A stretch of 36,560 bases of DNA from IMG/VR virus record IMGVR_UViG_2724679539_000003, positions 1-36,560 of that record, one strand, 5' to 3'. The notes beneath the pieces are model-generated. The model saw nothing but the letters and a program-made list of their open reading frames with translations. It was not told where the DNA came from and ran no database searches. A program made the position numbers and the translations under genes. The DNA comes from a virus (Duplodnaviria > Heunggongvirae > Uroviricota > Caudoviricetes). Each line of letters begins with the position of its first letter. Positions within the stretch are counted from its first letter, which is position 1. Below are positions 32,314 to 33,269 of this stretch, piece after piece.

Positions 32314-32898
32314 ATGCCAATACTTTCAGTTTTCTCTCATCTAGGCAAGCCGTTTGGATATCTTTTTATTAAAGGTATTAGCGGCAAAGCTGCATATGAT
32401 TGGGTAGCACCAATTCTACTTACTTCTATCACAGCAGTACTTTTCATTCTATTAAAAATCCCTGTCAAAGATTTATTTGATGACAATGGTTTCATTAAAT
32501 CAATCGTTTCATTTATCTCTAACCTACCAGGGTTTTATATTGCCGCTCTGGCCGCCATAGCAACTTTCAATAGAGCTGAGATTGATTTACCATTGATTAG
32601 CAATGAAAGAAATGCCTCTATTGAAATAAAAGTAACAAAAGAAAATGGAAAAGTAGTAAATTCAGAGGAGGTTCTGACCAGACGATTATTTCTTTGCATG
32701 CTATTCTCTTTTTTAACAGCATTAAGCATTGTTATAATAATACTTAATGCTATATTTTCACCATTAATCAATGTCTATCAAAACAGTATTGTTTTAATGG
32801 TTTATACTGTTGTATTTACTTTCCTAGTTTGGCAACTCTTAGTATCAACTTTCTTTGGATTATATTATCTCGGAAACAGAATTCATATGAATTATTAA
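32314..32898 (+). CDS. Hypothetical 194-aa integral membrane protein, about 4 TM helices (cassette B gene 2)
   Basis: TGAGG RBS 6 nt upstream; four hydrophobic stretches (APILLTSITAVLFILL, FYIAALAAIATF, LFLCMLFSFLTALSIVIIILNAIF, VLMVYTVVFTFLVWQLLVSTFFGLYYL). Confidence 0.65.
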   Translation: MPILSVFSHLGKPFGYLFIKGISGKAAYDWVAPILLTSITAVLFILLKIPVKDLFDDNGFIKSIVSFISNLPGFYIAALAAIATFNRAEIDLPLISNERNASIEIKVTKENGKVVNSEEVLTRRLFLCMLFSFLTALSIVIIILNAIFSPLINVYQNSIVLMVYTVVFTFLVWQLLVSTFFGLYYLGNRIHMNY

Positions 32899-32919
32899 GC
32901 CCTACAGGGGCTTAATAAT
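32891..32919. terminator. 12-bp perfect palindrome spanning the convergent stop codons of cassette B gene 2 and the Q-like gene (candidate bidirectional terminator)
   Basis: ATTATTAAGCCC-tacag-GGGCTTAATAAT; plus-strand TAA at 32896-32898 and minus-strand TAG at 32904-32902 both lie in the stem-loop. Confidence 0.5.
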
Positions 32920-33252
32920 CAACAAAATACCTTCAATCACTCCTATTGCTGCTTGAAGTTGTTTTCTGATTGACCCGTCAGAGCATTTCCGTTTCTTTGC
33001 TATTGAACGGAGTGAAATACCGATAACAAAGTGAGCAATGATCAGTTCATATTCTTCTGGCTTATATTTCCGCAATCGCGCAACACAGCTGTCAATCATG
33101 ATTCCTTCATCATCATCGCATTGTTGGCGTGTTTTCTTTCCATGAGGTAGTAAACCTTTAAACCCTGCAGCAACAGGCTGCCAGTCCACACCACTGTTAT
33201 CTGCTGCAGCCCATGCTCCCCAGCGGTCCAATACTTCATACATATCACGCAT
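32902..33252 (-). CDS. Late-gene antiterminator Q-like protein (phage antitermination Q family)
   Basis: ORF 32902-33267 (TTG); likely start ATG at 33252 (MRDMYEVLDRWGAWAA..AAGFKGLLP..CDDD), matching the remembered Q family pattern; last gene of the early-right operon. Confidence 0.7.
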   Translation of the reverse strand: MRDMYEVLDRWGAWAAADNSGVDWQPVAAGFKGLLPHGKKTRQQCDDDEGIMIDSCVARLRKYKPEEYELIIAHFVIGISLRSIAKKRKCSDGSIRKQLQAAIGVIEGILLIIKPL

Positions 33253-33269
33253 CAACCTTCTCCACAAAA

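Follow-up and report, generated by a model that had tools for sequence, protein, structure and literature searches.

The Q antiterminator gene of this prophage and the late promoter on which its product would act (PR') appear to be separated by a slot for accessory cargo, with PR' on the far side and the contents of the slot exchanged by recombination. We assign this reading a probability of roughly three in four. The window (the whole stretch of DNA that was analysed, 36,560 nucleotides) was 99.2% identical to Shigella phage SfII and is an SfII-like lambdoid prophage. Reading along the minus strand, Q was followed by a hairpin, a 1.66-kb cassette on the opposite strand, the predicted PR', a leader and terminator (tR') of roughly 55 nt, and then the holin, endolysin, and Rz genes. 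The features were as follows:

29816-30208, minus strand: Rz, after the endolysin
30192-30668, minus strand: endolysin, downstream of holin S
30672-30998, minus strand: holin S, first late gene (PF05106, E 6.6e-25; SfII annotation)
31141-31172, minus strand: predicted intrinsic terminator tR', AAACCCGCCGTCGAGCGGGTTT + TGTCGTTTCT (terminator scan; folding)
31173-31202, minus strand: predicted start-site/early-transcribed block, G-N-TAAGAGTGGT, and leader (at least 90% conserved across genera)
31203-31208, minus strand: predicted −10 hexamer of PR', TATCGT (TAnnnT kept at a fixed position in 37/37 aligned loci)
31216-31243, minus strand: predicted upstream half of PR', A-tract and 16-mer (conservation across loci)
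31238-31283, plus strand: 5' region of the cassette, back-to-back with PR' (read from the sequence)
31284-32306, plus strand: cassette gene A, 340 aa, PADLOC PDC-M53A (PDLC04696, E 2.1e-32, full-length)
32314-32898, plus strand: cassette gene B, 194 aa, PADLOC PDC-M53B (PDLC04699, E 1.8e-54, full-length)
32891-32919, no strand assigned: perfect inverted repeat (12-bp arms, 5-nt loop) where Q and the cassette converge (repeat search; folding)
32902-33252, minus strand: Q antiterminator, Q21 family, 116 aa (Pfam PF06530 Phage_antitermQ, E 8.7e-45)

The Pfam match to Q spanned 112 of the 118 model positions. PF06530 is the family of Q21 and Q933W, lambda Q belonging to PF03589 (Yin et al., bioRxiv 10.1101/651190); against the Q21 chains in the PDB (6P18 and 6JNX), phmmer returned a weak match (E 1.9e-4). 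The open reading frame of Q reaches further, to a TTG at 33267, the start implied by the coordinates of the preliminary description; we place the true start at the ATG at 33252, because every relative opens with MRDMYEV or MRDIQMV. From the Q stop to the holin start we measured 1,903 nt, in agreement with the 1.9 kb given earlier, with the holin beginning about 150 nt past tR'. An Rfam scan of 30900-33400 returned a single chance-level match (P9, E 0.84, far under the gathering score).

The two cassette genes adjoin, 7 nt apart, and supply both components of PDC-M53, which makes the cassette a candidate anti-phage defence system. The profile matches covered residues 7-340 of the gene A product (positions 4-318 of 320) and residues 6-193 of the gene B product (2-187 of 188). 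Gene A matched no Pfam domain, and a literature search found no paper mentioning PDC-M53. By eye, the gene B protein had a hydrophobic, membrane-like look. GC content was 0.26-0.40 (about 30%) in the cassette (gene A, 0.28-0.40; gene B, 0.26-0.36), as compared to 0.50-0.60 in the flanks. The cassette would be transcribed in the lysogen from its own promoter, divergently from PR'; a candidate, by inference only, consists of TTGTAA (31238-31243), a 17-nt spacer, and AAAAAT (31261-31266). An SD-like GGATGA precedes the gene A ATG at 31284. The consensus promoter scan called no promoter for the cassette.

A predicted late promoter beyond the cassette

A conserved block with the layout of a promoter, leader, and terminator was located at 31243-31141, between the cassette and the holin. 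In the cargo-less relatives 1720a-02 and PhiR49_2, the same block starts 5 nt past the Q stop, and it adjoined Q in 15 cargo-less loci; here, 1,663 nt separate the Q stop (32902) from the putative −35 region (~31238). Alignment with these relatives did not yield the same Q-to-holin spacing without an insert. The earlier proposal that the late promoter and Q-utilisation site would sit beyond the cassette is thus supported by comparison with relatives.

The upstream half of the predicted promoter contains an UP-like A-tract at about −43 to −39 and an invariant 16-mer, TAACGCGTACGCAAAA, at 31231-31216 (about −35 to −20), within which lies the palindrome GCGTACGC. The 16-mer, a putative Q-binding element, occurred once in the window and was at least 90% conserved at each position of the anchored alignment. 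To assemble loci independently, 39 were retrieved through Q protein homology alone. The full 39-nt leader matched only 5 of them, because leader and terminator diverge outside E. coli, and the loci were therefore re-anchored on the core 14-mer AACGCGTACGCAAA. Of the 39 loci, 36 (31 with an exact match), representing at least 15 genera, carried this core 602-2888 nt downstream of Q; beyond it came TAnnnT, TAAGAGTGGT, and in most cases a terminator.

The inner bases of TAnnnT varied among the 37 aligned loci, while the pattern itself was present in all four promoter types, including type C (TTTACA-16-TATGCT). Two other placements of the −10 were tried and rejected, AATTAT at 31216-31211 and TATTGT at 31213-31208 (with TATTGT, TAAGAGT would occupy +2 to +8, the phage 21 register); in neither were A2 and T6 conserved across the 37 loci. 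Transcription is predicted to start at about 31196-31198. The G-N-TAAGAGTGGT block may be where sigma-dependent pausing and Q loading take place: TAAGAGTGGT is similar to the phage 21 SDPE, TAAGCTG, yet it overlaps the predicted start site, the conserved TAAGAGT falling at about −4 to +3 as compared to +2 to +8 in phage 21. The tR' stem (31172-31151) and its T-run, called by the terminator scan, lie about 25-55 nt past the predicted start, where they may be the target of Q antitermination. Under a strict rule, a terminator-like hairpin with T-run was present at this position in 22 of 36 independent loci; by our reading of these loci, most of the others carry imperfect versions. A small leader hairpin (GUGGU...GCCAC) was also considered; its pairing was not kept in other genera. 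Identity of the leader with the prophage sRNAs PasA-D was not supported, PasB being in a structural operon and PasD tied to a PF03589 Q.

Four types of promoter-spacer motif paired one-to-one with four clades of Q, whose predicted recognition helices differ. This co-variation could partly reflect physical linkage.

The nearest characterized system is that of phage 21 (GenBank OL657228; structures 6P18 and 6JNX), whose Q belongs to the same family, PF06530. Its curated annotation comprises a −35, a 16-bp QBE in the spacer, a −10, a start site, the SDPE, and a terminator by +50. The predicted PR' shares this arrangement: a weak or ordinary sigma-70 promoter, a 16-bp element in the −35/spacer region, a −10, a TAAG... 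block, a terminator, and then the lysis genes. There are, however, several differences. The phage 21 −35 begins 7 nt past the Q stop, whereas here an antisense cassette intervenes and the distance is about 1.66 kb. Q21 has a direct repeat as its QBE (ATTGAGCA/AATGAGCA), whereas the putative element here contains a palindrome and sits about 7 nt further upstream. The register of the pause element does not match, and the proteins differ in length (116 aa here, 162 aa for Q21) and match only weakly. The lambda PR'-qut-6S RNA-tR' region is similar in that a short, terminated RNA is made constitutively upstream of the lysis genes and Q turns its termination into read-through; unlike the present case, lambda Q is of another family and no cargo lies between it and PR'.

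By analogy, Q made from early transcription would diffuse to PR' 1.7 kb away, bind the 16-mer, load onto RNA polymerase near the start site as does phage 21 Q, and carry the polymerase past tR' into the lysis and structural genes. The Q gene itself would not need to be near its target site. We infer the promoter, the start site, Q binding, and termination alike from sequence and comparison.

A slot for exchangeable cargo

Dozens of different low-GC cargos occupied the interval between Q and the promoter in approximately 150 related loci, which represented at least 15 genera. The IMG/VR loci comprised 31 cargo classes plus empty sites, and slot content was likewise variable in 36 loci from other genera. 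Occupants included a complete Kiwa system (KwaA, 2e-83; KwaB, 2e-150), PDC-S20 (a KAP NTPase), HEC-04, the PDC-M68A HNH protein, PDC-S42, and an NsnA/PD-T4-2-like protein; most cargos had no PADLOC or Pfam assignment. Orientation was nearly uniform. Antisense and sense open reading frames totalled 12,289 and 496 aa, respectively, in the IMG/VR loci and 15,990 and 386 aa in an independent genome set, so that about 96-98% of cargo coding ran antisense to Q. Such orientation has probably been selected, since a constitutive promoter on a cargo in the sense orientation would switch on the holin and lysis genes of a lysogen. Relatives also carried sense-strand cargo downstream of tR', including a Dam methylase and tRNAs.

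Outside E. coli, Q and PR' were separated by at least 602 nt in 36 of 36 loci bearing the motif. The premise of the preliminary description, that Q normally adjoins the late promoter, thus holds for the cargo-less relatives and fails for these loci. Among the loci compared, separation is the rule for this Q clade; the arrangement is common in related prophages of enteric bacteria and no one-off accident.

The boundary of the cassette proved to be a mosaic joint inside Q, near 33060-33020, where identity to relatives decays stepwise. Compared with mEp460/569R4, Q was 97-100% identical down to about 33060, 82-70% identical over 33060-32941, and random below. Its last ~50 codons represent a diverged allele, and the last ~12 are specific to the PDC-M53 cargo. 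No boundary-to-boundary direct repeats or target-site duplication were found at the cassette. Homologous recombination, acting between the conserved 5' two-thirds of Q on one side and the PR' block on the other, appears to swap one cargo for another, so that each cargo arrives with a particular Q C-terminal tail and, as a rule, a hairpin of its own.

The feature is a prophage accessory-gene hotspot of the ordinary kind, at a position for which our literature search found no earlier description. Like the defence hotspots of P2 and P4 (Rousset et al. 2022, PMC9122126; Vassallo et al. 2022, PMC9519451), it is a fixed slot between conserved phage genes; like those hotspots and the lambdoid 'morons', it holds a varied set of low-GC, probably independently transcribed genes; many are known or candidate defence genes and many are unannotated. 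It differs in lying between an antiterminator gene and that antiterminator's own target promoter, in occurring in lambdoid prophages (SfII, cdtI, mEp460, Stx-phage-like), and in its near-absolute antisense orientation and junction hairpin. The late-operon cargo of Stx phages (stx and tRNAs downstream of PR'/tR') also places accessory genes between Q and the lysis genes, but inside the Q-dependent transcription unit, where they are expressed on induction. The cassette described here lies outside that unit, upstream of PR' and antisense, and so could be expressed in the lysogen.

The hairpin at the Q/cassette junction

The perfect 12-bp palindrome reported earlier at the convergent stop codons was confirmed by a repeat search. 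Its arms, 32891-32902 (ATTATTAAGCCC) and 32908-32919 (GGGCTTAATAAT), are each 12 nt long, 100% complementary, and 5 nt apart. No other perfect stem-loop-type inverted repeat of at least 12 bp was present in the 36.5-kb window; we estimate the chance expectation of such a repeat at about 0.05 (0.27^12 × 36,560 positions × 8 loop sizes). The TAA of gene B (32896-32898) lies inside the left arm. The Q stop (TAG, 32904-32902) contributes two bases to the loop and one to the innermost pair of the stem, the right arm is made of Q's final codons (ATT ATT AAG CCC), and the two stop codons are separated by 3 nt. RNA folding, proposed earlier as a check, gave a stable structure on both strands (plus, −16.8 kcal/mol, z −5.8; minus, −17.0 kcal/mol, z −4.9), and 0 of 200 shuffles folded as stably. 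Of the 12 pairs, only 4 are G-C. The plus-strand tail is CAACAAAA and the minus-strand tail TCATATGA, a 3' U-tract is absent from both, and the terminator scan, finding no T-run, did not call the hairpin.

Cargo classes commonly had a hairpin at this position. At the Q stop, hairpins of −10 kcal/mol or lower were found in 24 of the 31 classes as compared to 9 of 60 interior control windows, and hairpins of −13 kcal/mol or lower in 19 of 31 as compared to 2 of 60. These hairpins were unrelated to one another in sequence; several were canonical bidirectional terminators (A-tract, stem, T-tract). The particular sequence described here occurred with the PDC-M53 cassette only, among 167 loci, and cargo-less phages had no hairpin after Q. 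The closest homologous cassette (the L019/L128/L129 class) lacked a comparable structure (−3.7 kcal/mol); the cassette can therefore do without the hairpin.

On balance we lean towards the view that the cargo brings this hairpin with it as a bidirectional terminator or insulator of weak effect. It would end or stabilize the cassette mRNA and would limit both antisense transcription entering Q from the cassette and transcription passing from Q to the cassette; hence the weak, symmetric action that we propose. As in known bidirectional intrinsic terminators, a symmetric stem-loop is common to two convergent 3' ends, and the AT-rich outer arms mimic the A-tract/U-tract layout; the differences are the 4 G-C pairs per arm, the lack of a true U-run, the absence of a call in the terminator scan, and the location of both stop codons inside the structure. 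The shared bidirectional terminator of the preliminary description is therefore favored by the recurrence of hairpins across cargo classes and weakened by the missing U-tract and the terminator scan.

The same two shortcomings, in a stem that is stable on both strands, would suit a structure with no terminator role, a 3' stem-loop that keeps 3'-exonucleases off one or both of the cassette and Q mRNAs, with termination occurring elsewhere or by Rho. Stop codons in or next to the stem point the same way, as terminating ribosomes would be expected to disturb co-transcriptional folding. Many other cargos, however, carry T-run terminators at this very junction, suggesting that termination is the selected function, and protection and termination are not mutually exclusive. 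We consider protection alone unlikely.

It is very improbable that the late promoter lies directly beside Q, in its 3' end or in the palindrome, with late transcription running antisense through the cassette and the block at 31243-31141 serving as a mere attenuator. The textbook expectation is that PR' follows Q at once (Yin et al.; phage 21 annotation), and the consensus promoter scan gave weak minus-strand hits at 32891-32864 and 32781-32754. That scan, however, returned 10 hits as compared to 9.1 expected in shuffles and missed the predicted PR', and for these reasons was not used as evidence. The two hits also fall in AT-rich DNA that is particular to the cargo and lacks conservation from one cargo class to the next. 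By contrast, the far-side block is the only sequence downstream of Q conserved across all cargos and genera, is what abuts Q in cargo-less phages, and combines a conserved −10 pattern with a motif whose type tracks the Q clade.

Still harder to sustain is the insertion scar offered by the preliminary description, or a site of the site-specific recombination or transposition that delivered the cassette. The palindrome does coincide exactly with one cassette boundary, where GC drops abruptly. Nonetheless, the other boundary has no matching repeat, no target-site duplication or flanking direct repeats were found, and the cassette encodes no recombinase gene or domain. Each cargo class has a different junction sequence, this palindrome being confined to one of them, and the stepwise decay of identity inside Q is as expected of homologous-recombination mosaicism; we set the scar aside.

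Least credible of all is a DNA operator for a dimeric regulator of Q or the cassette: the 12-5-12 palindrome has perfect dyad symmetry and operator-like size, but the cassette encodes no regulator, the palindrome sits at the 3' ends of both genes, away from promoters, and it is not conserved in the homologous L019/L128/L129 cassette.

Regulation and significance

Lambda has an antisense promoter, paQ, inside Q, and paQ is likewise annotated inside Q of phage 21. It offers a precedent for antisense transcripts entering Q, which is what read-through from the cassette would produce; an antisense influence of the cassette on Q is speculative. A more ambitious reading, to which we give little credence as a whole, is that the Q-PR' gap is an undescribed defence-cargo hotspot of Enterobacterales with a fixed regulatory design. 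The weak hairpin would leak antisense transcription to Q in the manner of paQ, reinforcing lysogeny; early lytic transcription past the hairpin would silence the cargo; and the Q proteins would bind clade-specific palindromic operators as symmetric dimers, unlike the direct repeat of Q21.

For a large clade of the Q21 family, the late promoter should be sought by its signature of 16-mer, −10, leader, and terminator, and not by adjacency to Q. The one-to-one pairing of four Q clades with distinct palindromic motifs provides testable predictions of Q-DNA recognition. The slot is precisely bounded, from the Q stop to TAACGCGTACGCAAAA or its equivalents in other clades, and could be mined automatically for new anti-phage systems; validated systems such as Kiwa share it with mostly unassigned cargos. 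In SfII itself, the 'hypothetical' genes SfII_49 and SfII_50 gain a probable role. More generally, the arrangement is relevant to the question of what insulates accessory genes from the lethal lysis genes of a lysogen.

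Gene order and the predicted late promoter

The window carries a lambdoid prophage whose early and late genes are both encoded on the minus strand; over 30600-33600 it is 99.2% identical to Shigella phage SfII. Read from right to left, genes for a LexA-like DNA-binding protein, RusA, a KilA-N protein and a DUF968/HNH protein come first, to the right of Q, followed by these features:

32902-33252, minus strand: antiterminator gene Q, 116 aa (PF06530, E 8.7e-45)
32314-32898, plus strand: cassette ORF (gene B), 194 aa
31284-32306, plus strand: cassette ORF (gene A), 340 aa
31150-31242, minus strand: island of ~93 bp
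31172-31151, minus strand: island hairpin, AAACCCGCC-GTCGA-GCGGGTTTT then GTCGTTT, called by the terminator scan
30672-30998, minus strand: holin (PF05106), with endolysin and Rz next

BLAST comparison with phage and E. coli genome collections showed Q, the holin and the island to be conserved across relatives; the stretch from Q to the island varied. On the minus strand the island comprises an A-tract, TAACGCGTACGCAAAA, 7 nt, TATCGT, GT, TAAGAGTGGTTACTTCGCCACACAGCTT and then the hairpin, and the holin ATG follows ~150 nt later. A 16-mer at 31231-31216, the inferred Q-binding element (QBE), is present as a single copy in the window.

The arrangement was tested independently on 39 loci retrieved by Q protein alone from one-genome-per-species contigs (Enterobacter, Klebsiella, Citrobacter, Yersinia, Serratia, Pantoea, Kosakonia, Buttiauxella, Raoultella and other genera). 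The core 14-mer of the element, AACGCGTACGCAAA, was found downstream of Q in 36 loci (31 exact), always 602-2888 nt from the Q stop. All 36 had TAnnnT at a constant distance, with A2 and T6 fixed and the inner bases variable, then G-N-TAAGAGTGGT. A hairpin and T-run followed within 130 nt in 22 of the 36 by a strict rule; most others had imperfect versions on inspection. Judged by its layout, this matches what is predicted for a sigma-70 promoter whose short leader ends at a terminator. Phages 1720a-02 and PhiR49_2 lack cargo, and in them the island starts 5 nt past the Q stop. This alignment with relatives lacking the cassette, together with the promoter signature in the independent loci, supports the preliminary description, which had placed the late promoter (PR') and Q-utilisation site beyond the cassette.

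PF06530 is the Q21/Q933W family (Yin, Kaelber and Ebright), and the curated record of phage 21, which annotates a -35, a 16-bp QBE in the spacer, a -10, a start site, an SDPE and a terminator, has the layout predicted for the window. In phage 21 the -35 begins 7 nt past the Q stop and the terminator lies by +50; its SDPE (TAAGCTG) sits at +2 to +8, whereas the candidate pause element TAAGAGT in the window overlaps the predicted start site.

A census of 113 loci containing the leader yielded four types of spacer motif, all palindromic, in one-to-one correspondence with four Q clades that differ in their predicted helix-turn-helix recognition helices.

Spacer motifs and predicted Q recognition helices
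Type A: GCGTACGC; (S/T)IRK(E/Q)LQ
Type B: GCGGTCCGC; LIRIEIQ
Type C: TTTACAATCGTAAA; WVGRLLQ
Type D: TGTTATAACA; QVVIRLQ

The -10 assignment is supported because the type C motif supplies a good -35 element (TTTACA-16-TATGCT). Since Q and motif are physically linked, linkage alone could have produced the pairing; the pairing is maintained across many different intervening cargos. Separately, the Q of the SfII reference (L003, NC_021857, 3303-3614) has 103 aa and lacks 13 residues, AADNSGVDWQPVA, relative to window 33150-33210; these are kept in the window Q and every other clade-A Q. The gap is either an in-frame deletion that an inducible phage tolerates, or a sequencing or assembly error.

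Cargo between Q and PR'

Scanning IMG/VR for the leader core returned 120 loci, in which Q and leader were 45 nt apart at the least, at 15 empty sites, and 3,787 nt at the most, with 31 cargo classes. Cargo ORFs lay opposite the Q strand for 12,289 of 12,785 aa in these loci and 15,990 of 16,376 aa in the independent genome set, where cargo GC was 0.31-0.41 vs 0.44-0.60 upstream. We infer that this bias arises because a cargo promoter active in the lysogen would, if aimed at PR', switch on the holin and lysis genes; aimed away, its read-through would enter only Q, as antisense, much as happens from paQ, a promoter in the phage 21 annotation.

Occupants included a complete Kiwa system (KwaA 2e-83, KwaB 2e-150), PDC-S20 (a KAP NTPase), HEC-04-like ATPases, a PDC-M68A HNH protein, PDC-S42, an NsnA/PD-T4-2-like protein, a second PDC-M53 pair, and DUF6731, NA37 and SDH-protease proteins; many had no match in family searches. 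A BLAST match in E. coli PK8261 (H12, NZ_CP080155) has a porin OmpC gene and quuD annotated in the stretch from the DUF968 gene to the leader island, and the former may be receptor-type or porin cargo of this slot. One genome, Shigella flexneri SFBU0723 (CP182557), holds two prophages of the same Q clade (L133, L135) with near-identical cargo of ~2.4 kb in the slot. Two short contigs are probably contamination or mis-binning in public assemblies: one of 400 nt labelled Myxococcus, with a Q N-terminus at 100% identity (L167), and one of 2.2 kb binned as Erysipelotrichaceae, with E. coli-type Q, cargo and leader (L129).

In the window, both cassette ORFs match PADLOC PDC-M53 components at full length (A, E 2e-32; B, E 2e-54); a Pfam search found no informative domain in them, and a literature search found no mention of PDC-M53, which is a candidate defence system only. 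Cassette GC is 0.26-0.40 vs 0.50-0.60 in the adjoining phage genes, and TTGTAA-17-AAAAAT at 31238-31266 is a guess at its promoter. A two-gene design, in which a soluble protein of ~270-350 aa precedes a hydrophobic one of ~140-195 aa that looks membrane-like by eye, is common to the window and the cargo classes of L114, L066, L041, L117, L110, L063 and L122. Among these only the window and L122 scored as PDC-M53, and DUF6731 is present in L114; together they may form a single divergent superfamily, similar to Kiwa in composition and with the gene order reversed.

Relatives (L001, L002, L004, L006, L007) also carry sense-strand cargo between the leader terminator tR' and the holin, including a Dam methylase (DNA adenine methyltransferase), small ORFs and, in PhiR49_2, three tRNAs; the Q-to-holin interval therefore has two slots with opposite orientation rules. 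The slot past tR' is distinct from that between Q and PR' and lies inside the Q-dependent transcription unit. The window has no accessory genes there, its holin following tR' by ~150 nt. A second low-GC island (0.33-0.38; 28629-29652, plus strand), with two ORFs 117 and 208 aa long, separates the Rz/Rz1 genes from the HNH/small-terminase genes and is on the strand opposite to them. Pfam and PADLOC scans gave no match for the 208-aa ORF. The island may represent a further cargo slot, this one preceding the packaging module, where phage defence genes have been mentioned (Tai paper, PMC11364771).

The junction hairpin and exchange of cargo

The inverted repeat at the Q-cassette junction agrees with the first description; it has arms at 32891-32902 and 32908-32919, complementary at 12/12 positions, with a loop of 5 nt. 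The left arm holds the cassette TAA (32896-32898), the Q stop TAG (32904-32902) covers part of the loop and the innermost pair, and the right arm is the last four sense codons of Q preceding CTG-TAG. A repeat search of the whole window found no other perfect stem-loop repeat of such size. Imperfect inverted repeats occur at 34080-34125 inside the DUF968/HNH gene (20 nt, 90% complementary, 6-nt loop; the window's longest hairpin-type repeat) and at 32718-32751 inside cassette gene B (17 nt, 88% complementary, spacer 0).

RNA folding gave ~-17 kcal/mol on each strand (z ~-5). A hairpin of <= -10 kcal/mol lay within ~70 nt of the Q stop in 24 of the 31 cargo classes (interior control windows, 9/60), and one of <= -13 kcal/mol in 19 of the 31 (controls, 2/60). 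Each differs in sequence from all others, and several are textbook A-tract/stem/T-tract bidirectional terminators, as in cdtI (AAAAAAGGGCA-TTTC-TGCCCTTTTT) and APEC37 (AATAATACGCCCC-TGCAT-GGGGCGTATTATT). Cargo-less phages have no sequence element between Q and PR'. By position and symmetry the window hairpin is the counterpart of these hairpins. The earlier suggestion of a shared bidirectional terminator is plausible in view of the class-wide enrichment, but as a terminator the hairpin is weak: it has four G-C pairs and no U-run, the terminator scan did not call it, and the nearest homologous cassette has no comparable hairpin. Given the architecture, we put at slightly better than even the chance that it acts both as a leaky bidirectional terminator or insulator and as a 3'-end stabiliser; the main alternative is that it purely stabilises RNA.

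The joint was mapped against mEp460 and 569R4, both of which share the window's Q clade but carry other cargo. Between 33900 and ~33060 identity is 97-100%; it falls to 82-70% over 33060-32941 and is random beyond. The variable part of Q starts past a conserved G(F/V)(I/L)(D/E)G near the C-terminus, and the Q tail is specific to each cargo class. The alternative proposal of an insertion scar is not supported, as identity decays stepwise inside Q, no direct repeats were found at the two cassette boundaries and the cassette has no recombinase gene; the palindrome is part of the cargo module. From the same observations, cargo is therefore exchanged by homologous recombination, for which the 5' part of Q and the PR' block would provide the homology arms.

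The original observation was real and most of what was drawn from it holds. Every element belongs to a known kind: the switch is of Q21 type, the slot is one for prophage accessory or defence genes, and the hairpin is of the sort located at convergent junctions. In the searchable literature we found neither the Q-PR' slot position nor the clade-specific palindromic motifs described. These motifs may be new, as may the generality of the slot across Enterobacterales together with its position, which separates an antiterminator gene from the promoter that it targets.
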